Origin: Lachnospiraceae bacterium
GTDB lineage: Bacteria; Bacillota; Clostridia; Lachnospirales; Lachnospiraceae
DNA length: 64,000 bases
NCBI GenBank assembly: GCA_045628865.1
Contig: JAZQQB010000009.1
Span: 1-64,000, forward strand
Reading direction: 5' to 3'
The notes under the pieces are model-generated. The model was given only the letters and a program-made list of their open reading frames with translations. It did not search any database and was not told the origin of the DNA. Numbering within the stretch: position 1 is the first letter of the stretch; the number at the start of each line of letters is the position of its first letter. Made by a program: the position numbers and the translations under genes. Of the stretch, positions 7,164 through 30,275 are shown piece by piece.

Positions 7164-8327
7164 ATGATTACAAAGAAAAGACTATTTAGAGTAGTGGCTT
7201 TGGGGGTATTGATAGGACTTTGTTTACAAGGTTCCACAGCTGTATACGCGGGTAAATCTACCCAGGAACAGATCAATGAAAAGGAGCAGGAGAAGCAGCA
7301 AACAGAGGCTGAACTTGCTCAGACACAAAATGAATTGGATGGCTTGCGAGATACTCAGGGTGGTTTGAAGGTAGAATTGAACACGCTGAATGATAATCTT
7401 GCGCAGGTAAGTAGTGATTTAGAACAGCTGGAATTGGATATCAGTGTCAAGGAATCAGAGATATTACAGACAGAGCTTGAATTAGAATACGCAGTTTCTG
7501 TGGAGAAAGCCCAGTATGAATCTATGAAAGAGCGAATCAAATTTATGTATGAATGTGGGAATTCTTTGTATTTTGAGATGCTCTTGTCAGCAGAAAGTTA
7601 TGGAGATTTTCTTAATAAGGCGGACTATATTGAGCAACTTTCAGCCTATGATAGAAATCAATTGATGGCTTACACAGCAAGTAGAACTGCTACTGAAGAA
7701 AAAAGAAATCAGCTTTTTCAGGAACAGTCTGAATTGCAGGTCCTTAAGACTGAGGTTGAAGAGAAGAAAGCAAATGTGGAAAGTATGGTTAATTCTACTT
7801 CTAATTCCATTGCCAATTATGCAGATCAGATTTCTGATATGGAACAAGAGGCTCTGGCATATGAAGCGCAGATAGAGCAGCAGGATAAGGATTTAGTTGC
7901 ATTATATAAAAAACTGGAAGAAGAAATTGCTCTTTCGAAACTGGCTTCCCAATCAGCAAAACGTGATATATCAGAGGTACATTTTGATGAAGGTGACAGA
8001 TATTTGCTGGCAAATCTAATTTACTGTGAAGCTGGTGGAGAACCGTATGAAGGACAGGTTGCTGTTGGTGCAGTTGTAATAAACAGGGTGCTTAGCTCTG
8101 TTTATCCGGATACCATAGTTGGTGTTATCTATCAAAGTGGTCAGTTTTCACCAGTAGGAAGTGGAAGACTTGCCCTTGCCCTTGCTTCTGATAAAGCAAC
8201 AGCCAAGTGTTATCAGGCGGCAGATGAAGCTATGAGTGGAATTACCAATGTGGGAGACTGTGTATATTTCAGAACTCCGATAGAGGGATTGACAGGAATT
8301 AGTATTGGTGGACATATTTTCTATTAG
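7164..8327 (+). CDS. secreted coiled-coil protein with C-terminal SleB/CwlJ-family cell-wall hydrolase (Hydrolase_2) domain
   Basis: signal peptide; ~250 aa heptad-rich region; C-terminal YLLANLIYCEAGGEPYEGQVAVGAVVINRV...VIYQSGQFSP typical Hydrolase_2. Confidence 0.6.
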   Translation: MITKKRLFRVVALGVLIGLCLQGSTAVYAGKSTQEQINEKEQEKQQTEAELAQTQNELDGLRDTQGGLKVELNTLNDNLAQVSSDLEQLELDISVKESEILQTELELEYAVSVEKAQYESMKERIKFMYECGNSLYFEMLLSAESYGDFLNKADYIEQLSAYDRNQLMAYTASRTATEEKRNQLFQEQSELQVLKTEVEEKKANVESMVNSTSNSIANYADQISDMEQEALAYEAQIEQQDKDLVALYKKLEEEIALSKLASQSAKRDISEVHFDEGDRYLLANLIYCEAGGEPYEGQVAVGAVVINRVLSSVYPDTIVGVIYQSGQFSPVGSGRLALALASDKATAKCYQAADEAMSGITNVGDCVYFRTPIEGLTGISIGGHIFY

Positions 8328-8372
8328 GATGACATCTTTTTATTGTAGAATAAATGGACATAAGAAAAACGA

Positions 8373-8406
8373 TTTAAAACAGAACTGTTTTAAATTGTTT
8401 TTTTGT
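8373..8406. terminator. bidirectional terminator between convergent genes
   Basis: perfect palindrome ttaaaacag-aa-ctgttttaa followed by T-run. Confidence 0.55.
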
Positions 8407-8456
8407 AGTAAAAGAAACGAAAATATGTTACGATATATATGTTTAATTGTATAAAT

Positions 8457-8951
8457 TTATAGAATTTCCCATGGACTTGGAATTTTATCCAAAAGGGACT
8501 GCAAATCCATAAACGTTTGATCGTAAATAGTTTTAAGAAGGAAATTTAAGCTGTTTAGTGATTGCAACAAGAGTTGTTCAGAAATCAGATTCTGAGCCCT
8601 TGCTTCAGACAACTCATCTAAATCAACTACCTTGTAGCTTCCATCCGGATAAATCAAGACATCAGCAAGAAGATCAATTGTATAGAGGGAATTCTCTTCC
8701 TTGTTTTCTTCGAAGGTCATAATATCACAATACCAACAGATCAGATTCTTATCGTGGTCATAGAATTTGCTGATTTTAAGTCCCTCATGAAAAAGAAATA
8801 AAGATGTGCCAAAAGCAAGATCTCTTTTGGGTTTAATGCTTTTCCAGCTGGTGATCATATAGTCATTGTTTTTCTCATGAATATAATCACTTGTAAGTTT
8901 TAGACATTCATCTGGGATGAAACGTCTTCGGTAAAGAGTAAGCTCCTGCAT
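8457..8951 (-). CDS. DUF402 family protein (YgaC/FomD-like)
   Basis: pattern RRRFIP...W...KP..D.A.G...F......K..KFYD.D.....WYCDI... matches DUF402; start chosen at MQELTLY with GGAGG RBS. Confidence 0.5.
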   Translation of the reverse strand: MQELTLYRRRFIPDECLKLTSDYIHEKNNDYMITSWKSIKPKRDLAFGTSLFLFHEGLKISKFYDHDKNLICWYCDIMTFEENKEENSLYTIDLLADVLIYPDGSYKVVDLDELSEARAQNLISEQLLLQSLNSLNFLLKTIYDQTFMDLQSLLDKIPSPWEIL

Positions 8952-10972: not shown

Positions 10973-11527
10973 GTGACTATTGCTTATGTAGGCGCAGCGT
11001 TTGCTGAAGCAGATACAAGATTATTCGATCTGGATTTTCAGCTCCTTCATGATTCTGTCCTCACCATCATTGCAGTCATGGCTTTGTTCTTTGTGGCATC
11101 TCATTTCCTGTTTAACCCAGTTAGAAAGGTGTTACAGGATCGTTCAGAGAAAATTCAGAACGATATCAATGCGGCAGCAGTTGATAAAGCAGAAGCGCAG
11201 AAGAGCCGTGCAGAGTATGAGCTCAGACTAAAGGAAGCAGACAAAGAAACGGAAGTCATCTTAAGTGAGGCAAGAAAGAAAGCACTTGCTAATGAAGCGA
11301 AGATTGTGGCAGAAGCAAAAGAGGATGCGGCACGTATCATCGAGCATGCTAACAAAGAAGCAGAACTTGAAAAGCAGAAGGTTGCAGATGAAGTAAAGCA
11401 GGAAATAATTTCTGTAGCTACATTAATGGCTGGAAAGGTTGTTTCTGCGAACCTAACAAAGGATGATCAGGAAAAATTAATCCAGGAAACCTTGAATGAA
11501 ATAGGGGATGAAACATGGCTAAGCTAG
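10973..11527 (+). CDS. atpF: F0F1 ATP synthase subunit b (GTG start)
   Basis: single N-terminal TM then long charged helix; operon position. Confidence 0.85.
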   Translation: MTIAYVGAAFAEADTRLFDLDFQLLHDSVLTIIAVMALFFVASHFLFNPVRKVLQDRSEKIQNDINAAAVDKAEAQKSRAEYELRLKEADKETEVILSEARKKALANEAKIVAEAKEDAARIIEHANKEAELEKQKVADEVKQEIISVATLMAGKVVSANLTKDDQEKLIQETLNEIGDETWLS

Positions 11528-12060
11528 TAACAAAAACTTACGGAAAAGCTTTGCTTGACCTGGCAGTAGAAGAGAACAAGGTGGATGAGCTTTATGAAGA
11601 AGCAAAAGCACTTCTAACTGTTGTTTTGAATAATCCAGATTTGAAATTGTTGATGACACATCCTAAGATTTCAGAACAGGAAAAGTTAGAATCATTAAAT
11701 GCGATTTTCGGTGGGCGTATTTCTAATGAGATGCTTGGATTTTTAAAGATTCTCATTGAGAAAGAACGATTCAAAGAAATAGATGGTGTACTAAACTTTT
11801 TCCTGGATGAAGTGAAAGAAATCAAAGGAATAGGAGTTGCGAAGGTTATCTCAGCTGTTCCATTAAATGTGGTGGAACAAAAGAGAATAGAAGAAAAACT
11901 TTTGGTAACTACCAAATATCAAAGTGTAGAAATCGACTATGAAGTGGATGAGGCTTTGATTGGCGGAATGATCATTCGAATGAAAGATCGAGTCATTGAC
12001 GGAAGTGTTCAAACAAAGATTTCCGAAATGAAAAAGCAATTAATGAAAATTCAGTTATAA
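11515..12060 (+). CDS. atpH: F0F1 ATP synthase subunit delta (OSCP)
   Basis: operon position, 181 aa, OSCP-like sequence. Confidence 0.85.
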   Translation: MAKLVTKTYGKALLDLAVEENKVDELYEEAKALLTVVLNNPDLKLLMTHPKISEQEKLESLNAIFGGRISNEMLGFLKILIEKERFKEIDGVLNFFLDEVKEIKGIGVAKVISAVPLNVVEQKRIEEKLLVTTKYQSVEIDYEVDEALIGGMIIRMKDRVIDGSVQTKISEMKKQLMKIQL

Positions 12061-13619: not shown

Positions 13620-14483
13620 ATGGCCTCTATGAGAGACATCAAGAGACGAAAAAGTAGTATTCAAAGTACCCAGCAGATTACGAAAGCCATGAAACTGGTT
13701 TCTACCGTAAAGTTACAGCGTGCAAGACAAAAAGCAGAATCTGCAAAGCCTTACTTTACATGTATGTATGAAACCGTGACAGCAACCCTTGCAAGATGTG
13801 GAGACATTGAACATCCGTTTTTAAAACCAACACCTAATGGAAAAACAGCTATTGTAGCGATCACTTCCAATAGAGGTTTGGCTGGTGGATACAACAACAA
13901 TGTCTGCAAACTGATTACAACGGGTAATTATCCAACGGACGATGTGAACATTTATGCCATTGGTAAAAAAGGTCGAGAAGTTCTTGCAAAAGCAGGTTAT
14001 GATATCAAAAAAGATTATTCTGATATGATAGAAGAACCGCTATACGCAGACGCAATGATCCTTTGCAAGGAATTGTTAGATTCGTATGTGGCAGGTGAAA
14101 TTGATGAAATCGTTTTGGCGTACACATCATTCAAAAATACAGTTGTGCATGAACCTACGCTGTTAAAGCTTCTTCCGGTAGATGCAGATGCGTTAAAAAG
14201 GGATGGAGATAAACAGACAGCACAGGCACTTATGAACTTTGAACCAGAGGAAGAGGAAGCCATTGAGCTTATTATTCCTAAGTATGTCACAAGCTTGATC
14301 TATGGAGCAATGCTTGAGGCTGTTGCAAGTGAAAATGGTGCGAGAATGCAGGCTATGGATAATGCGACAAGCAATGCTGAGGAAATGATCAGCAGTTTAT
14401 CACTGCTATACAATAGAGCTCGTCAGGGATCTATTACACAGGAATTAACAGAAATTATCGCCGGTGCTTCGGCGATTTCATAG
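13620..14483 (+). CDS. atpG: F0F1 ATP synthase subunit gamma
   Basis: MASMRDIKRRKSSIQSTQQITKAMKLVS... gamma N-terminus; 287 aa. Confidence 0.9.
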   Translation: MASMRDIKRRKSSIQSTQQITKAMKLVSTVKLQRARQKAESAKPYFTCMYETVTATLARCGDIEHPFLKPTPNGKTAIVAITSNRGLAGGYNNNVCKLITTGNYPTDDVNIYAIGKKGREVLAKAGYDIKKDYSDMIEEPLYADAMILCKELLDSYVAGEIDEIVLAYTSFKNTVVHEPTLLKLLPVDADALKRDGDKQTAQALMNFEPEEEEAIELIIPKYVTSLIYGAMLEAVASENGARMQAMDNATSNAEEMISSLSLLYNRARQGSITQELTEIIAGASAIS

Positions 14484-14636
14484 AAACAATTTTTCAAAAT
14501 TTACGAAAAAACTGCTCGCAGTTTTATTCGATAAATCTTGAAAAATGTACGAAGATGAGCACGAAATGCGTAGCATGAGAGTGCGAATCTTCGCAGGATT
14601 GCGGGAGTGCTTGCATGGAGCAATCTGTGTTTCTAA

Positions 14637-17916: not shown

Positions 17917-20469
17917 TTGAAGAAGTGGATCATAAAAACGATCATTTTTATATCAGTCTTTTTGATTTCAGTAATCGTAATCAGTAAGATTATCAATAAA
18001 GGAAACTTAGATTTGACTCGGGAGGTAACAGGAACAAAAAATCCGTGTGCTTATGTTGTCATTGAGGGTGAACGAGCCAATGCCATGTTTGGTTATGCGC
18101 AGACTATGGATACCCAGACCTTAAAGCAGCATATTACACCGATTGGTGAAGACCGTTCCGTTGCATTTGAGGTGGATACTTTTGGAACAAAAATATCCAA
18201 GGTATCTTACGAAGTGAGAAGCGTTGATGGAAAAAGACTGGTAGAAAGCACACAAGTTTATAACTATACCTTGGTGCAGAATTTGTTGAAGATTTATTTT
18301 TCTGTTAAGGATCTGATTTCAGAAAACAATCAGTATACCTTGGTTCTTTTATTGGAAAAAGAAGATGGTGAGGTACTGCGATATTATACAAGAATCATGC
18401 AGACGTCCAATGTACATTTACAGGAGCAGATGGAGTTTGCAAAGGAATTTCATGAGTCTACTTTTGACAAGGATTCTACTGGGATAATTAAGGATCATGT
18501 GGAAAGTAATTACCTTGGAGATAATACAACGTATGCTTATGTCAATATTCATAGTAAGCTTGATCAGATCACATGGGGAGCTCTTCCAATTTCCAATGTA
18601 TCCAAACCAGTATATGAAATTGTGGAGATTGGAAAAGAAACGGCATCTATTGTTATCCGTTATACATTGCAAATAGAGGATAATGGAAAGTACTATACTT
18701 ATCCGGTAGAGGAATATTTTAGAACCAAATATACCACAGACAGAATGTATCTTCTTGCATATGAGAGAAAAATGAATCAATTGATAGAATCTTCAAATCT
18801 TGTTGTTGCTAACGATAAGATTATGCTAGGTATTTCAAATGGAGATGTATCTTTGGTAGAGAATGCATCGGGAACAATCATTGCTTTCTCTGAGAACAAT
18901 GCATTATATAGTTTTTCTGTTTCCGAGAATAAACTGGCTAACATATATACACCATATGAAACAACACAGAGTGATTATCGAACTATTTTTGCAAATCAGC
19001 ATGTTAAGGTCTTATCTATTAGTGAGACTGGTAGTATTGCATACATGATTTATGGACATATGAGCCAGGGAGAACGAGAGGGCTATGTTGGTGTTCAAAT
19101 CCTAAATTATGATAGTATGACCAATACCATAGAGGAAAAGGCATTTATTCCATCTACAAAATCAGAAGAAATTCTTATGGCTGAAATGGAGCAGATGGCA
19201 TATATTAACGTTAACAATGTGGTATTCTTTATTTTAGATAATAATCTGTATAGGGTTGATTTAAATGAAGTTTCAGTAAAGGTAGTTGCCAAGGATCTGC
19301 AACCTATCAATTATGAATGCGCCGAAGATTGCAGCATGATTGTATGGCAGATCAATGAAGATGAGACGGTGGTTGATGATCCATATGCATGCTCAAAGCT
19401 GATACTTTATAATCTTGCAACAGAAGAAAAATCAACAATCCAGGCAGATGAGGATTCCTATATCATGCCATTGGGATTTATGGGAATCGATCTGATTTAT
19501 GGAGAAGCCAAGAAAACAGATATCAGAAAAGAGTATACTGGTCACACCATTTTTCCAATGTACTATTTAAAGATTCAGGATGGAAATGGAAATGTTTTGA
19601 AAGAGTATAAAAAGGATTCTGTATATGTAACAGAGATTAGAATGGAAAATAATCTTATCACATTAAAACGTGTGAAGCCTTTTGATGGACTTGGACCATA
19701 TCAGGAAACAACAGATGATCAGATTATTTGTAGTGAGATTGAATCAACAGGAAAAAATACCTTGATCACGGTTGCAACAGAAAACTATCAAAAAATATAC
19801 GAAATACTGTTAACAAAATCCGTTTCAAAGGACAAAACATTGGTATTAACACCAAAGCAGGTAGTTGTAGAAGCACCTAGAGAAATACTTTTGACACAAG
19901 AGGAAAAAAGTTATGGACGATTTTATGTGTATTCAAAAGATGGTGTGATTGGAATCTATACAGATGAGGCAAAAGCAGTATCACTTGCTGATAGTGTAGC
20001 AGGTGTTGTGACAGATGATACTGGAAAGTATGTATGGAGAAGCGGCAATCGTTTGTTAAGTAATCAGATTATGGCAATTGAAGCTGATAAGGCATCAGAT
20101 TCTAAATCTAGCGCGGCGGTATGTATTGAGTCGATTCTGTCCTTTGAGGGAATCACTCGTAATGCAGAGGTAATGCTTCGTGAAGGTCAGAGTGTTGTAG
20201 AAATCTTAAGTGATCATTTGCCAGAAGGGTGCCAAGTATTGGAATTATCTGGATGTAGTTTAAGCTCTGCATTGTATTATGTTAGTGAGGAGTATCCAGT
20301 AATGGCGGTTATGAAAGACGGAAGTGCAGTTTTGATTGTTGGTTACAATTCACAGAATACAGTAATCTTGGATCCTGCCAAAGGTACCATTGCAAAAAAA
20401 GGAATGAATGATTCCAAACAATGGTTTGAAGAAAATGGAAATGTATTTATTACCTATATTAAGGAGTAA
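17917..20469 (+). CDS. hypothetical N-terminally anchored extracytoplasmic protein (850 aa) with degenerate C39-like peptidase-fold C-terminus
   Basis: TTG start after GGAGGA; single N-terminal TM; C-terminal VLIVGYNSQNTVILDPAKG resembles C39-like domain but no obvious catalytic His. Confidence 0.45.
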   Translation: MKKWIIKTIIFISVFLISVIVISKIINKGNLDLTREVTGTKNPCAYVVIEGERANAMFGYAQTMDTQTLKQHITPIGEDRSVAFEVDTFGTKISKVSYEVRSVDGKRLVESTQVYNYTLVQNLLKIYFSVKDLISENNQYTLVLLLEKEDGEVLRYYTRIMQTSNVHLQEQMEFAKEFHESTFDKDSTGIIKDHVESNYLGDNTTYAYVNIHSKLDQITWGALPISNVSKPVYEIVEIGKETASIVIRYTLQIEDNGKYYTYPVEEYFRTKYTTDRMYLLAYERKMNQLIESSNLVVANDKIMLGISNGDVSLVENASGTIIAFSENNALYSFSVSENKLANIYTPYETTQSDYRTIFANQHVKVLSISETGSIAYMIYGHMSQGEREGYVGVQILNYDSMTNTIEEKAFIPSTKSEEILMAEMEQMAYINVNNVVFFILDNNLYRVDLNEVSVKVVAKDLQPINYECAEDCSMIVWQINEDETVVDDPYACSKLILYNLATEEKSTIQADEDSYIMPLGFMGIDLIYGEAKKTDIRKEYTGHTIFPMYYLKIQDGNGNVLKEYKKDSVYVTEIRMENNLITLKRVKPFDGLGPYQETTDDQIICSEIESTGKNTLITVATENYQKIYEILLTKSVSKDKTLVLTPKQVVVEAPREILLTQEEKSYGRFYVYSKDGVIGIYTDEAKAVSLADSVAGVVTDDTGKYVWRSGNRLLSNQIMAIEADKASDSKSSAAVCIESILSFEGITRNAEVMLREGQSVVEILSDHLPEGCQVLELSGCSLSSALYYVSEEYPVMAVMKDGSAVLIVGYNSQNTVILDPAKGTIAKKGMNDSKQWFEENGNVFITYIKE

Positions 20470-25015: not shown

Positions 25016-25036
25016 ATAAAATCAAAATATGAATTT

Positions 25037-25077
25037 AAACACACTGTATTTATTGGTGAAATACAGTGTGTTTTTTG
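25037..25077 (+). terminator. rho-independent terminator after GH30 gene
   Basis: aaacacactgtattt/aatacagtgtgttt stem plus T-run. Confidence 0.65.
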
Positions 25078-25206
25078 CATAATGGGATAGATACAATATA
25101 ATGCAAACTTGTGACAAAATAGCCTAAAATATTGAAATAATCTGACAACTAAAATAAAATATACATGTGATTGATACTATATTGACTATTTAGAAAGGTG
25201 GTTAAA

Positions 25207-26568
25207 ATGGGACTTTTTAATTCAGATAATCCAAAGGAAGCAAATCATTCGGGTATATTAGGCGCGTTTTCAGTAGATACGATTAAATGGGAGCCAGATA
25301 CAACGAATATAATTGCGCATAGATATGAATATGAGGATTTTCCTAATGGGTCTTATCTACATGTGGCAGATTCGCAAATGGCTATTTTTACGAATAACAT
25401 AACAGCAGGGAATTCGCTTGAATCGAATGGAATGGGACAGTCACAAGTCTCTATTTTTGTAGGCCCTTGTAAAATTAAATTAGAAACAGGGGATTCCCGT
25501 TTTGCACCTTTTAGAAACATCTCTCATTCACTAACTGGTGGAGAATCTGCTTTTCATAGCGTTGTGTACTTTATTAACAATACATATTTGAATGATTTGC
25601 CATGGGGAACACAGTCACCATTTCTAATTGTTGATCCAGTGGAACAGGTAAATGTTCATGTACGTGCACAGGGATTTTATGGAATTCATTTAGAACAATT
25701 AGATTCAAGTGTTGCTCAAGTGCAAGCAAGAGAATTTATTAAAAAGGTAGTTGGAACACAAAGGGATTTTACAAAAGATGAGTTAAATAAGTTTTTAAGA
25801 CAGCAGATTTTATCAAATGTACCAGCGATTGTTCATGGAAAGATGAAATCAGATCAATTGAGCATTCTTGATATCACTTCTTATCTTGGTGATTTGTCAA
25901 AATTGGTATTTGATAGATTAATCGAAGTGTTTAAAAACTTTGGTATCGTTTTAGATAGCTTTTCATTTACTAGCATTTCGGTACCAGACGAAGATATAGA
26001 AGCAATCAATGAAGAAAAAATTAAAGCGAAACAGGCACAATTCAAGGCTCAGCAAATGGATATAGAATCAGAGGCATTGGCTCGAAAACGTCAAAGAGAA
26101 GGATATACGTATCAGCAAGAACAAGCTTTTTCAGTTTTGGGAGCTGCTGCATCTAACGAAGGAAATTCATCAGGAATGATGGGAGCAGGAATGGGATTAG
26201 GAATGGGTTTTGGACTCGGTGGAACATTCGGGGCAGGAATGGGTCAATTAGCACAAGCTACCATGTCAAATGTGAATATGACGGCACCTCAACTAGGAAA
26301 CACAAATGCAGCGGCAGAAAATACGGAAGGTAAAAAGTGTAGCAATTGTGGTGCTATGATTCCGAAATCAAGCAAGTTTTGCCCAGAATGTGGGGAGAAG
26401 AGCTCGACAGAAAAGAAGTGTCCAAGTTGCGGAGTGAGTGTTGGTGAAAATTGTAAGTTTTGTTCAGAATGTGGATTTAAATTTGAAGCGAAATTTATTT
26501 GTCCATCGTGTGGAATAGAATTTGCACCAGGAAGTAAATTCTGTCCAGAGTGTGGCACACGTATTTAA
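25207..26568 (+). CDS. SPFH/Band-7 superfamily protein (COG4260/YdjI-like) with Gly/Met-rich linker and C-terminal array of four CxxC...CxxC zinc ribbons
   Basis: N-terminal region resembles YdjI-type SPFH proteins; C-terminus CSNCG...CPECG, CPSCG...CSECG, CPSCG...CPECG. Confidence 0.55.
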   Translation: MGLFNSDNPKEANHSGILGAFSVDTIKWEPDTTNIIAHRYEYEDFPNGSYLHVADSQMAIFTNNITAGNSLESNGMGQSQVSIFVGPCKIKLETGDSRFAPFRNISHSLTGGESAFHSVVYFINNTYLNDLPWGTQSPFLIVDPVEQVNVHVRAQGFYGIHLEQLDSSVAQVQAREFIKKVVGTQRDFTKDELNKFLRQQILSNVPAIVHGKMKSDQLSILDITSYLGDLSKLVFDRLIEVFKNFGIVLDSFSFTSISVPDEDIEAINEEKIKAKQAQFKAQQMDIESEALARKRQREGYTYQQEQAFSVLGAAASNEGNSSGMMGAGMGLGMGFGLGGTFGAGMGQLAQATMSNVNMTAPQLGNTNAAAENTEGKKCSNCGAMIPKSSKFCPECGEKSSTEKKCPSCGVSVGENCKFCSECGFKFEAKFICPSCGIEFAPGSKFCPECGTRI

Positions 26569-26579
26569 GGAGGATAGAA

Positions 26580-27269
26580 ATGAGAAATCTGAAAAAAGGA
26601 ATAATAATAGAACTAATGGTATTGGTTACTTGGATCATTTCTATGATTCTTCTAGTTGATTTTGATAAAGTATCAACATTTTTTTGGATAGAAGGTGCTT
26701 TTGTTTTATTGGCCTATTTAATTGTGATAGTAACAAATCTAGTTGTACCGAATGGAAATGAAGGAACCTGTGAAGTAAATGCTATTCCGTTTATTATTTC
26801 CATAATTTATCTGATATCACAGATTATTACAAACTCTATAGCAATGCTTATTTTTCCAGGTAAGAAAAATAAACTAATAATCATTATGGATTGTATTGTA
26901 ATAGTAGTGTATGTTACTGCATTAATGTTTGCTGTCCAGTATGCAAAACGTTTGAACAAGCAGATTGAGAAGGTTAACCATAAGACAACACCAACAGTAA
27001 ATTATGTAGCACAGATAGGAGTTATGCTGTCTGCAACAAAAGATGCAGAAATCAAAGAGGAATTATTGAGCTTAAAGAAAAATGTTGAATATGGATCTAA
27101 TATGAGTCAAAAACAGACACAAGAGATTGAAGGAACATTTTTATCGCAACTAACATATATTCAACAGTTGATAAATCAAAATCAAGGAAAAGAAGACATA
27201 ATCGCTGCAATAAAAGAAGCGAATGCAATTTGGATGCAAAGAAGTAGCATTTCATCAGCGATTAGATAG
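26580..27269 (+). CDS. membrane protein, 4 predicted TM helices + cytoplasmic helical tail
   Basis: GGAGGA RBS; hydrophobic segments; 12-bp gap to upstream gene. Confidence 0.5.
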   Translation: MRNLKKGIIIELMVLVTWIISMILLVDFDKVSTFFWIEGAFVLLAYLIVIVTNLVVPNGNEGTCEVNAIPFIISIIYLISQIITNSIAMLIFPGKKNKLIIIMDCIVIVVYVTALMFAVQYAKRLNKQIEKVNHKTTPTVNYVAQIGVMLSATKDAEIKEELLSLKKNVEYGSNMSQKQTQEIEGTFLSQLTYIQQLINQNQGKEDIIAAIKEANAIWMQRSSISSAIR

Positions 27270-27279
27270 AGAGGCAAAA

Positions 27280-28086
27280 ATGGAAATAGAAGGTATTGTA
27301 TGTGATGGATGTGGAAGTGCATATATTGAGTTTAATCCAAGGAATAGAACAGTTTTATGCAATCAATGTGGAAAACTATCAACATATGCTAGATCTACAC
27401 TGAATAAAAACGGGAAAATCTGCTTTCAAAGAGAAAATGCAATAAAGCAGTTTTCTTCAGGAAAAATGGATGAAGCACAATCCTATGCACATGAAGTTTT
27501 GAACATTTTTGTTGATAATGCACCTGCATTATTTATCATGTCATACTACGATGAATTTATAAATAAAAGAATCGGAAGCATGAAGAAATTTTTTGAGGAA
27601 ATACAAAGTGCAGCGCTTGAATATGATGAGGTAATGGAACTAGAGTCTTTGTTTTTAGCGGCTGCTTACAATATGACTGATTATGAAGCAGAAATTATCA
27701 AACTAATTTGTGCGAATATGCAGGCTGAGCAGGATAAAAAATCTTTATGTGATTTTTTTGATACATTGTGTCCATATATGATTTCCAAAAGAACATCAAT
27801 GAATTTCTTTGATGATGAACGGGTAGGAATGTATAAAGATTTAGCGGGTCATTGTGGTATTCCTAAAACATGTTTTGCTTTATTAAAGGCGATAGAAGCG
27901 AATCCAGATTCTCCATATGTGGGCAACAGTTTTTACTTAGAAACAAAGGCTAGATATTTTTACGATAAATTTGTTATTCCAGTTGGTGAAGTGGTACAAG
28001 CAATCAATAACATGGAATTCAGAGAAAAATTCATTATGGTATATAAACAGAAGAGAGAAAAATACAAAATAGATGCAAAGTTATAA
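27280..28086 (+). CDS. N-terminal zinc-ribbon protein with alpha-helical C-terminal domain
   Basis: CDGCG...CNQCG ribbon at N-terminus; no TM. Confidence 0.5.
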   Translation: MEIEGIVCDGCGSAYIEFNPRNRTVLCNQCGKLSTYARSTLNKNGKICFQRENAIKQFSSGKMDEAQSYAHEVLNIFVDNAPALFIMSYYDEFINKRIGSMKKFFEEIQSAALEYDEVMELESLFLAAAYNMTDYEAEIIKLICANMQAEQDKKSLCDFFDTLCPYMISKRTSMNFFDDERVGMYKDLAGHCGIPKTCFALLKAIEANPDSPYVGNSFYLETKARYFYDKFVIPVGEVVQAINNMEFREKFIMVYKQKREKYKIDAKL

Positions 28087-28120
28087 GATTACATAAGGCA
28101 AAAGCTTGAAAGGAGAAAAG

Positions 28121-29779
28121 ATGGCAGATTATGTGAATCTAACCCCGGTCATAAACGAGGTGAAGCAGGTACAAAGAAAGGTTGATCAATTATCTGCAGT
28201 TACAGCAGCTATAGGAACAGAGGTGGCTGCTGTGAATAATGCGGTAGCAATGGTTGACAGGGAAGTAAAAGAATTATCTGAACAATTTCTTAAAATGATG
28301 AGTGAACAACAGAGATTAGCGAATTTGCAACAAGCTCAGACGGAAATTATTCGTATCAGACAAGAAATTGAGAATAAGTTTTCAAATTATAGAATTGTTA
28401 GAGAAAATATGATAGGTGTGCTTCAGGCTACGGATCTTGCGTTAGTAAAACAATCAACAATTTCGAGAGTTTCAGAGGAGTTGATGCTTGCAACACCAGA
28501 TTATTGGTTAGCCCCTTGTCTAGTAGCAATATCAGCCTGGATAGGAAATGATAAGGATTTGGCTGAAAGAGCAATCAAAGAAGCTATGCGTAGAGACAAG
28601 GAAAGAACCGCATTGACAATGGCACTAGTTTGTAGAAGAAATCAACGTACAGCAACGTGCTATGAGTGGCTCCAGATATATTTTGATACACAAAGAGGCG
28701 ACTGTTTTTCAGAAGGTACATTTACTTATGTAGATGCATATTTGAATGGTATTTTTGGCCCGGATGAAAATCACATGTGTGATGATTACATAACAAAATG
28801 GATGAATGAAGTTCAAAAGGGAGAAAACTTTGCAGAACAGCAGGCGGCGGTTTGGAAAGAGTATTATACTTCTTATCAGGTAAATATGTCTTCAAATTAT
28901 CCAGATTTAATGTCTAATGTGACAGAATTTCCACAGATTAATAATTTTATTGGTAGAATTACTTCAATCAATACAATTCAGAATGATATCGGAAGCATTA
29001 CATCTGCTGACATTGACTTTGATAAATTGACAAAAGATATTGATTCTCATTTAATGACTCTTGTATGTAGATATAATACAAATGAAGAACCTTTAAGAAA
29101 AGAGGAAGAGCTTAATCAAGAAATTATCAATTTTGATGGAGATAGAGAAAAAGCAAAGGCAGTTGTTAAATTGCGAGAAATTGAACGTAAAGAGAAGACA
29201 TTGAATTTAGTGGAGCAGATGACAAAAGTTATTACATCAGATCAAAATTCATCTCAATCAGAAAAGAAGACTGCTATTTCATTTTTGAGTGGATATATGA
29301 GAAAAGGTTTTGAAGAGTATATTTCTGAAAATAGACCAATGTTTCCACAAGGGATTACAATTAATATAGATGGATGGGCAGGAACAACGGTTGATGGAAC
29401 AAATGCTCAACAGCTTTATTACGAATATGAACAGCATATGAATATGGCTAGAACACAGGCAATCAACAATGCTTCAAATAAGAAACCTACTATTTTTATG
29501 GCGGGTGGAATTGCAGCAATGGTAATCGGACTGATTTTATGTTTATGTGGTGTTGCAATTTTAGGTGTTCCTGCAATGATTGGTGGAGTAGTATGTTTTG
29601 TTAAGATGACACAATGTAAAAAGAATTTGCAAAACGAAATTGGAATGCTTAATCAGCAATTCACACAGCAAATCGAAATGGGAAGGCAAAAACTTGCTGC
29701 CATATTAGGACAATGGCAAAATGCGAGGGAAATGGCTAATTGGTATGATCAGAATCCTAGACCAGAGATTATTGCATAG
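28121..29779 (+). CDS. large coiled-coil protein with C-terminal double TM anchor (553 aa), unknown function
   Basis: N-terminal heptad-rich region, central Cys/Trp-containing domain, TM pair near C-terminus followed by short coiled coil. Confidence 0.5.
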   Translation: MADYVNLTPVINEVKQVQRKVDQLSAVTAAIGTEVAAVNNAVAMVDREVKELSEQFLKMMSEQQRLANLQQAQTEIIRIRQEIENKFSNYRIVRENMIGVLQATDLALVKQSTISRVSEELMLATPDYWLAPCLVAISAWIGNDKDLAERAIKEAMRRDKERTALTMALVCRRNQRTATCYEWLQIYFDTQRGDCFSEGTFTYVDAYLNGIFGPDENHMCDDYITKWMNEVQKGENFAEQQAAVWKEYYTSYQVNMSSNYPDLMSNVTEFPQINNFIGRITSINTIQNDIGSITSADIDFDKLTKDIDSHLMTLVCRYNTNEEPLRKEEELNQEIINFDGDREKAKAVVKLREIERKEKTLNLVEQMTKVITSDQNSSQSEKKTAISFLSGYMRKGFEEYISENRPMFPQGITINIDGWAGTTVDGTNAQQLYYEYEQHMNMARTQAINNASNKKPTIFMAGGIAAMVIGLILCLCGVAILGVPAMIGGVVCFVKMTQCKKNLQNEIGMLNQQFTQQIEMGRQKLAAILGQWQNAREMANWYDQNPRPEIIA

Positions 29780-29800
29780 TTTTTAGTGGAGGTACTTAAC

Positions 29801-29965
29801 ATGGATATGAATGATATGGAATTAGATTTAGCAGCAATGTTTGATGTGACAGAAGAAGAAAATGACAAAATGAGCAAAATGGAGAGCGTAGTATTAACTC
29901 AAAACCTTGAGGGATTTGCAAGTTGTTTTCCAGATTGGGATTTGCATCCTCCAGTTATTAGATAA
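29801..29965 (+). CDS. small acidic protein (54 aa), not in supplied ORF track
   Basis: ATG 29801 preceded by GGAGG at -8; MDMNDMELDLAAMFDVTEEENDKMSKMESVVLTQNLEGFASCFPDWDLHPPVIR. Confidence 0.3.
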   Translation: MDMNDMELDLAAMFDVTEEENDKMSKMESVVLTQNLEGFASCFPDWDLHPPVIR

Positions 29966-29974
29966 AAACCATCT

Positions 29975-30003
29975 TGACAGAAGAATTATAATGGATTTAT
30001 AAT
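29975..30003 (+). promoter_or_regulatory. sigma-A promoter TTGACA-N17-TATAAT for ileS leader
   Basis: consensus -35 and -10 with 17-nt spacer. Confidence 0.55.
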
Positions 30004-30009
30004 ACATTA

Positions 30010-30275
30010 TTGAATCGAATAAGAAAGACGTTGACGAAGACAGTACGTCATATGTGAAGCCTCAGAGAGTCGGAAATGGTGTGAACCGATGCAAGTAGCG
30101 TATGAAAGAAAATCACTTCTGAGTTGCATTCCCAAAAGTAATCGAGTAGGGAATGACGGAATCCTCCGTTATTGGAAACCATATAAAACCGCAATGCGGG
30201 GAGTATGATGTAATAGGTGGTATAACGAGTTTATTTTGACCTCGTCCTTTTACAGGACGGGGTCTTTTTATTTCA
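30010..30275 (+). ncRNA. T-box riboswitch leader (Ile specifier AUC) with terminator
   Basis: CAGAGAG stem-I motif, AAUCAC specifier region, GGUGGUA T-box-like element, terminator gacctcgtcc/ggacggggtc + T-run directly upstream of ileS. Confidence 0.6.

Follow-up and report, generated by a model that had tools for sequence, protein, structure and literature searches.

A 64,000-nucleotide stretch of a Lachnospiraceae bacterium genome (positions 1 to 64,000 of contig JAZQQB010000009.1, assembly GCA_045628865.1; hereafter the window) carries five closely packed open reading frames (ORFs), here called A to E, between a gene for a carbohydrate-active enzyme (CAZyme) and the housekeeping gene ileS. 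The first of the five encodes an SPFH protein, which raises the question of whether the locus is an SPFH operon that ends with two added genes, as the original prediction saw it, or whether it is organised around some other component. Comparison across bacterial genomes reverses that view: by gene content, D and E are the conserved core of the system, and the SPFH protein A, together with B and C, is one of two interchangeable accessory sets.

The five genes form one tight operon, as had been predicted. All are co-directional on the forward strand at 25207-29965 (window ORF listing), with spacers of 11, 10, 34 and 21 bp at the A/B, B/C, C/D and D/E junctions, and a GGAGG/GAAAGG-type Shine-Dalgarno site lies ahead of each gene. 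The start codons of A to E were set by these sites together with alignments of homologues. The features of the operon and its boundaries, in window coordinates, are the following.

25037..25073 (+), intrinsic terminator hairpin of the upstream GH30/CBM gene, marking the 5' boundary of the operon
25074..25160 (+), candidate sigma-70-type promoters, each with 10/12 matches in a consensus scan
25207..26568 (+), gene A, ATG at 25207, 453 amino acids (aa)
26338..26553 (+), zinc-ribbon tail of A, aa 378-449, from a regular-expression search of the translation and from Pfam
26580..27269 (+), gene B, ATG at 26580, 229 aa, with membrane segments from hydropathy
27280..28086 (+), gene C, ATG at 27280, 268 aa
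28121..29779 (+), gene D, ATG at 28121, 552 aa
29483..29611 (+), transmembrane hairpin of D, aa 455-497
29801..29965 (+), gene E, ATG at 29801, 54 aa
29906..29953 (+), C-terminal motif of E, LEGFASCFPDWDLHPP, aa 36-51
29974..30252 (+), ileS promoter and T-box leader, the 3' boundary, outside the module

The 5' hairpin has a 15-bp stem followed by a U-run, with a folding free energy of -17.7 kcal/mol and a z-score of -4.97, and was equalled by none of 200 shuffled sequences. The candidate operon promoters are TTTGCA-17-TATAAT at 25074-25102 and TTGAAA-17-TAAAAT at 25132-25160, in AT-rich DNA where sigma-70-like sites occur at chance level (39 seen against 35 expected from shuffled sequence). 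No credible terminator was found inside the operon, and promoter-like hexamers there are as frequent as in shuffled sequence. Directly 3' of E stands a promoter that matches the consensus at 12/12 positions (TTGACA-18-TATAAT, 29974-30003), followed by the T-box leader of ileS at 30022-30252 (Rfam, 93.1 bits). Pfam identifies the neighbours as a secreted GH30/ricin-B/CBM2 enzyme upstream and ileS downstream, in agreement with the predicted flanks. Only details of the predicted layout needed correction: of the gap range of 11-34 bp the upper figure stands and the smallest gap is 10 bp, and D is 552 rather than 553 aa long. The public call for C (287 aa, P0121) takes ATG 27223, within the 3' end of B, as its start; it is probably a start-site misannotation. 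We place the start at ATG 27280 because the homologues and the Shine-Dalgarno site all support it, the homologues all beginning at M-[DE]-x-x-G-[LI]-x-C.

A metagenome scan combined with annotation by hidden Markov models resolved two types of operon that contain D. Type I has the order A-B-C-D-E seen in the window. Type II runs D-E'-P150-AAA+, comprising D, a counterpart of E (E'), an approximately 150-aa helical protein, an approximately 520-aa AAA+ ATPase and usually an approximately 165-aa 'CYLG' protein, and has no SPFH protein, B or C. The two are alike in having a homologous D with a motif protein directly 3' of it, ribbons of the type found in A, a tight arrangement and a similar overall size. 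The D protein of type II is about 25-35% identical to the window-type D and has the same architecture. E' usually bears one or two zinc ribbons of the Zn_Ribbon_1/DZR type, as in the tail of A; since the E motif is here fused to A-type ribbons, the ribbons, the peptide and D are linked to one another. The AAA+ protein belongs to the classical clade and is Cdc48-D2-like, with its best PDB matches in the D2 domains of VAT/p97 (E 1e-55). The pairing of D with an E-type protein is obligatory across both operon types.

E itself, the best-conserved part, is acidic, as predicted, with 13 Asp/Glu against 3 Lys/Arg residues, and lies directly 3' of D in type I loci. It has a mean identity of 56% to the window protein across the cassette loci, and its C-terminus, LEGFASCFP[DE]WDLHPP, is almost invariant in 41 E sequences from these loci. 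Across the family the motif relaxes to [FL]PxW[DSN][LIV]xPP. A search for homologues of E returned 214 standalone proteins of 38-68 aa and no domain fusions, and E has no Pfam, NCBIfam or PADLOC family. An ORF with the motif [FL]PxW.[LIV] was found directly after D in 74 of 82 further loci (the L066-L150 range, which includes type II operons of other phyla), most of the other loci being on truncated contigs; the motif-bearing ORFs include those of Corynebacterium, Comamonas, Komagataeibacter and Streptococcus elements. The distant members of the D family have no A, B or C, yet keep a small motif-ending ORF directly 3' of D, with variants such as FPEWDILPP, LPDWSLEP, FPDWDLD and LPSWDIVPP. Separately, we considered whether E might be the precursor of a ribosomally synthesised and post-translationally modified peptide, and rejected this because it is the C-terminal 'core' that is conserved, a linked gene for a modifying enzyme is lacking, and the zinc-ribbon fusions still carry the motif.

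The type I cassette is found in the order A-B-C-D-E in more than 80 loci from Lachnospiraceae, Oscillospiraceae, Christensenella and Atopobium. Among 185,579 species (one genome per GTDB species), it is represented in 61, and it crosses a phylum boundary, occurring in both Clostridia and Atopobium/Coriobacteriia (Coriobacteriaceae). By tblastn and ORF tables, A, C, D and E are colinear wherever the contig permits; one locus (L008) has C-D-E only. The predicted co-occurrence of the five genes as a module at differing chromosomal sites was thus recovered in many genomes: Butyrivibrio, a Clostridiales metagenome-assembled genome and Acetatifactor have the same gene order within unrelated flanks, and around 83 cassettes the three nearest genes to either side yielded 422 proteins that fall into 288 clusters, with no sixth conserved gene. 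Nearly every lineage therefore carries the cassette at a site of its own, and on this distribution it is horizontally mobile and sporadic.

Several individual type I loci depart from the standard form. In Butyrivibrio sp. NC3005 (L065, about 7500-8900), a decayed cassette that is not syntenic with the GH30/ileS site has kept E, but only the ribbon tail from A, the N-terminal part of B and about 100 aa of D, which match the window D at 69-71% identity. In a human-gut clade (L094 2303-4564; L082-L107), two extra genes precede the cassette, each starting with the same type of zinc ribbon; they encode a 205-aa protein with a ribbon and multiple transmembrane segments and a 497-aa protein with a ribbon, a transmembrane segment and an extracytoplasmic domain. 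A ParE/Phd pair adjoins one type I cassette. Upstream of gene A, the element TGTCGA(A) occurs in 16 of 59 non-redundant cassettes, against 3.6 expected (e.g., L020, L027, L016, L040 and L034), and on the coding strand in 15 of the 16. Its usual place is the spacer of a sigma-70-like promoter or the sequence just 3' of one, and in some cases it forms a direct repeat. It may be an operator for some regulator and is at present a candidate for one; it is not present at 25016-25206 of the window.

Type II operons were found in Actinomycetota, Pseudomonadota, Fusobacteriota, Bacillota and candidate division KSB3, and their proteins are annotated as hypothetical proteins only. Some are carried on mobile elements. 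In the 14-kb Streptococcus satellite phage Javan368, a complete type II operon occupies about the last 4.6 kb, opposite the integrase (JavanS368_0004-0001). Here we noted an unannotated 58-aa E-like ORF at 11409-11585 (L151, MK448457), between JavanS368_0004 and _0003, that ends in GLPSWDIVPPQLLVRRKRQK. A 26-kb Komagataeibacter plasmid carries a type II operon (RI056_RS18810-18830) beside an IS3 transposase and an integrase, and a Comamonas megaplasmid carries another (HUK68_RS20095-20115). When the phage division of GenBank was searched with tblastn, the satellite was the single match. Ninety proteins flanking type II operons, summarised by Pfam and PADLOC, include a resolvase, rve and MobA among diverse others.

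Further genes accompany particular type II operons or isolated core pairs. A Ser/Thr protein kinase gene lies between the E' and AAA+ genes of one operon (L068 10217-11773), and a gene for a ZnR-TIR-LRR protein divergently adjoins a stand-alone D-E pair (L070 5850-7745 (-)). The 'CYLG' family, of about 110-170 aa (L067 7492-7995; L068 7650-7988; L143 12290-12805), has the motif CYLGxP(Y/F)xDH...EVY(S/T)DG and no match in Pfam, NCBIfam or PADLOC; the Cys and His of this motif might form an enzymatic dyad.

What, then, are the components of the window-type set? A is the only one of the five with a known family. It matches Pfam Band_7_1 (PF13421) at aa 105-269 with 87.3 bits against a cut-off of 24 (E 1.5e-24), with further matches to Band_7 (3.5e-07), Zn_Ribbon_1 (three stretches) and DZR. 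It comprises an N-terminal beta region, an SPFH domain at about aa 105-283, a Gly/Met-rich, low-complexity linker at about aa 320-350 and three C-terminal zinc ribbons. The predicted YdjI-type protein with a ribbon tail thus holds, with three ribbons in place of the four first counted, as there are six CxxC motifs (aa 378/392, 405/416 and 432/446). There is no hydrophobic segment and thus no membrane anchor, and a search against PDB sequences gave only ribosomal-type ribbons and coiled-coil noise. A has a mean identity of 56% to the window protein across the cassette loci. On these features it is a soluble YdjI-type SPFH protein, and by analogy it likely relies on membrane partners for its localisation.

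B has four hydrophobic, presumptively transmembrane segments and a cytoplasmic helical tail of about 105 aa (hydropathy), and no family in the Pfam, NCBIfam or PADLOC scans. Its mean identity to the window protein is 26%, with polar transmembrane residues and an LKE.vDYs.N motif among the conserved features. Of 57 cassette loci, about 50 have a B-sized ORF between A and C, and five (L010, L012, L044, L051 and L062) have none; as judged from these comparisons, B is a fast-evolving and dispensable member. C, with a mean identity of 50%, has one CxxC-x16-CxxC zinc ribbon at aa 8-30 and no hydrophobic segment. It has no Pfam, NCBIfam or PADLOC family, and a profile search against PDB sequences gave coiled-coil noise or ribosomal-type ribbons only. 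Modelling of aa 46-266 gives an all-helical TPR-like solenoid, and C thus models as a soluble protein that combines a zinc ribbon with a solenoid of the peptide-binding type.

These features bear directly on the proposal that the operon is the clostridial orthologue of Bacillus subtilis pspA-ydjGHI (samGHI), with B corresponding to YdjH and C to YdjG. The B. subtilis operon encodes PspA, YdjG, YdjH and YdjI (PMC11237479). YdjI consists of an SPFH domain without an anchor, a low-complexity linker and a C-terminal ribbon (PMC8581546; PMC11237479), which is the architecture of A, and in both cases the gene is found alongside membrane proteins and another zinc-ribbon protein. The resemblance does not extend to the partners. 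YdjH is a TPM-domain protein (PMC11237479), whereas B has four transmembrane segments and no TPM match. In YdjG, two zinc ribbons are combined with an NTF2-like (YpeB-related) domain and a transmembrane segment (PMC11237479); C, by contrast, has a single ribbon and a TPR-like solenoid and lacks both the NTF2-like domain and any transmembrane segment. Moreover, A has three ribbons against the one of YdjI, D and E have no counterpart in ydjGHI, and the window cassette is sporadic and mobile, with no sigma-W-type control detected. No PspA gene lies in or beside the operon, an absence that the original prediction had noted for the operon when it guessed at these correspondences, and none of the five proteins matches PspA_IM30 at E<=1. 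Orthology is refuted at the level of domain content, and we regard it as very improbable. Other operons that combine an SPFH gene with membrane partners, SPFH-NfeD and HflK/C-FtsH, are likewise comparable in that ring or cage oligomers are expected. They differ in that A has no membrane anchor and no NfeD, FtsH or other protease is linked; Pfam gave no NfeD match in B to E.

For D, a word-indexed search detected 545 homologues, and an exhaustive profile search put the family at 827 clusters (50% identity), almost all of them full length (540-680 aa). The cluster records of 20 distant relatives, including those of Corynebacterium resistens and candidate division KSB3, gave 'hypothetical protein' as the only name. 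D has no Pfam or NCBIfam family, its PADLOC matches are noise at E>=0.05, and its profile finds only generic coiled coils among PDB sequences (E>=0.003). Together with the corresponding results for B, C and E, this bears out the expectation that D and E fall outside recognised families. TelA and DUF4870, two of the Pfam families that the original prediction had singled out for checking, are found in none of the five proteins at E<=1, D and B included. Across the cassette loci D has a mean identity of 43% to the window protein.

The model of D (predicted local distance difference test, pLDDT, 80) starts with a long helix of about 95 residues (aa 8-102), followed by a helical-repeat domain of about 290 residues (111-402), a beta-hairpin (412-423), the transmembrane hairpin and a long helix of about 65 residues that ends at aa 544. 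The single hydrophobic stretch, of 43 residues (aa 455-497), is modelled as helices at 456-475 and from 479 onward and is, besides B, the only membrane-inserting element of the cassette. With such a hairpin, both termini of D should be cytoplasmic. In fold comparisons the helical-repeat domain is a TPR-like solenoid of the peptide-binding type, and its invariant surface lies around Y128, W129, P132, W140, R172, R173 and W183.

A coiled-coil membrane protein encoded beside a YdjI-type SPFH protein invites comparison with PspA and ESCRT-III. The locus could be a PspA-like module for membrane maintenance or envelope stress in which D is a functional analogue of these proteins, a scaffold of long helices that polymerises on damaged membrane; A would recruit and organise D as YdjI does PspA, the AAA+ ATPase of type II would remodel it as Vps4 does ESCRT-III, E would regulate assembly, and phage resistance, if any, would be a side effect of protecting the membrane. 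Several observations are consistent with this. A is in the YdjI family (Band_7_1 with a C-terminal ribbon), and YdjI requires membrane partners and is needed for PspA foci (PMC8581546). PspA homologues are reported to have band-7 proteins and AAA+ ATPases as independent partners (PMC11237479), and D has the same two classes of partner. No enzymatic effector was found in the window-type cassette with Pfam, NCBIfam or PADLOC, the flanks of type I are mostly housekeeping genes, and the TGTCGA(A) element suggests regulated rather than constitutive expression. A membrane-repair dynamin is reported to confer phage resistance in B. subtilis (PMC8844932). D itself argues the other way: Pfam finds neither PspA_IM30 nor Snf7 in it at E<=1, the ESCRT-III fold scores for it no better than generic helical bundles and TPR proteins, and unlike PspA it is an integral membrane protein, with a transmembrane hairpin, a solenoid of about 290 residues and a constant E peptide partner that set it apart from PspA, Vipp1 and ESCRT-III. 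The sparse and patchy spread (the 61 representatives noted above), the varying loci, the decay and the presence of the core on a satellite and plasmids are atypical for housekeeping stress systems, and no linked two-component system, extracytoplasmic function (ECF) sigma factor or PspC/LiaF-type sensor was seen in the loci examined. On balance we consider a PspA-like function less likely than not, though nearly as likely as the reading that we favour below.

The type II partner and the solenoids suggest yet another kind of membrane machine, either a platform for protein quality control or extraction, in which an SPFH cage or an AAA+ unfoldase works on membrane clients and E is an adaptor or substrate mimic, or an accessory of secretion or cell division. 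The SPFH proteins HflK/C cage the AAA protease FtsH (cited in PMC10936438), the type II ATPase is a Cdc48-D2-like unfoldase, and TPR-like domains such as those of C and D are typical of binders of clients or adaptors. One D homologue is publicly labelled 'type VII secretion ta...', on a weak precomputed match to T7SS_ESX_EspC; we rejected this label, as the match was not reproduced for the window D. In the loci examined, the linked genes include none for a protease, a secretion ATPase or a division protein, and the sparse, mobile distribution speaks against a core cellular function. An explanation of this kind appears improbable.

The reading that we tentatively favour, short of conviction, is that the cassette is a membrane-acting accessory module of defence or conflict, of the abortive-infection or exclusion type. 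It draws on the mobile carriage, the patchiness, the swapping of modules, the decay, and the neighbouring kinase, TIR and toxin-antitoxin genes, each seen in single loci. A number of observations weigh against it. The neighbours of the window operon are a CAZyme gene and ileS, not defence genes, and there is no anomaly in GC content or skew across 15-40 kb. Pfam and PADLOC analysis of 150 proteins flanking type I cassettes found mostly housekeeping and metabolic functions and few integrase, restriction or PDC/defence matches, with no control set against which to read a defence-island signal. Mobile-element carriage was seen for type II and not for the SPFH type of the window. No relatives of D were found when its alignment was used to scan IMG/VR viral contigs, nor was its fold found among the BFVD viral structures. 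PADLOC-DB 2.0 (2023), which the original prediction had suggested consulting, has no defence-system model for the window proteins A, B, C and E, and gives for type II only generic AAA (IetA-like) and kinase cross-matches. Finally, YdjI/SamI, the only characterised relative of any component, acts in envelope-stress signalling and not in defence (PMC8581546; bioRxiv 10.64898/2026.02.06.704340).

If the operon nonetheless serves as a defence or conflict module, its products would be expected to assemble into one complex at the membrane, on the cytoplasmic side. D, an alpha-solenoid and coiled-coil protein that would oligomerise and that its hairpin anchors in the membrane, would be the effector or the scaffold, and the E peptide, GFxxCFP[DE]WDLHPP, would dock on the conserved surface of the D solenoid and keep D in a resting state. 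A, B and C would act as a sensing or scaffolding set, one that is replaced in other bacteria by the AAA+ ATPase set; A may oligomerise like other SPFH proteins, and the set could assemble on D via its ribbons and TPR surfaces. When A to C perceive phage infection, damage to the membrane or a similar insult, D would be released or reorganised at the membrane.

A broader and slightly more speculative proposal is that D and E constitute an unrecognised but widespread two-component membrane core in which the E peptide gates D and which plugs into at least two control modules; such a core could represent a new class of membrane-acting immunity or conflict systems spread over at least five phyla by satellites, plasmids and chromosomal transfer. 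A literature search covering YdjGHI, Band_7_1, SPFH proteins in defence and satellite cargo found no description of the cassette or of the D family. B, C, D and E, like the cassette and the type II operon as wholes, are absent from every family library, structure and paper that we consulted, and the D-E-centred system appears to be new in kind.

Two further features of the window lie apart from the operon. A Clostridiales-1 RNA (Rfam RF01699, 98.6 bits) is present between two protein genes at 14481-14635 (+). The other is an ORF of 850 aa at 17917-20469 (+) that starts with TTG and matches no Pfam family at E<=1e-5; downstream of it lie genes for a YgjP-like metallopeptidase and for a DUF2142 membrane protein.

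Hundreds of sequence clusters contain the core pair, and the bacteria behind them come from gut, rumen, oral, skin and environmental sources. If the pair belongs to an immune or membrane-repair system, that system would operate by a new mechanism built on an SPFH scaffold and a peptide-gated membrane protein, and the cargo of some phage satellites and plasmids would be explained. Soluble YdjI-type SPFH proteins would also gain a second context, independent of PspA. Moreover, the two operon types amount to a natural experiment in which the SPFH set has been swapped for an AAA+ set, making hypotheses on the role of the SPFH scaffold directly testable.

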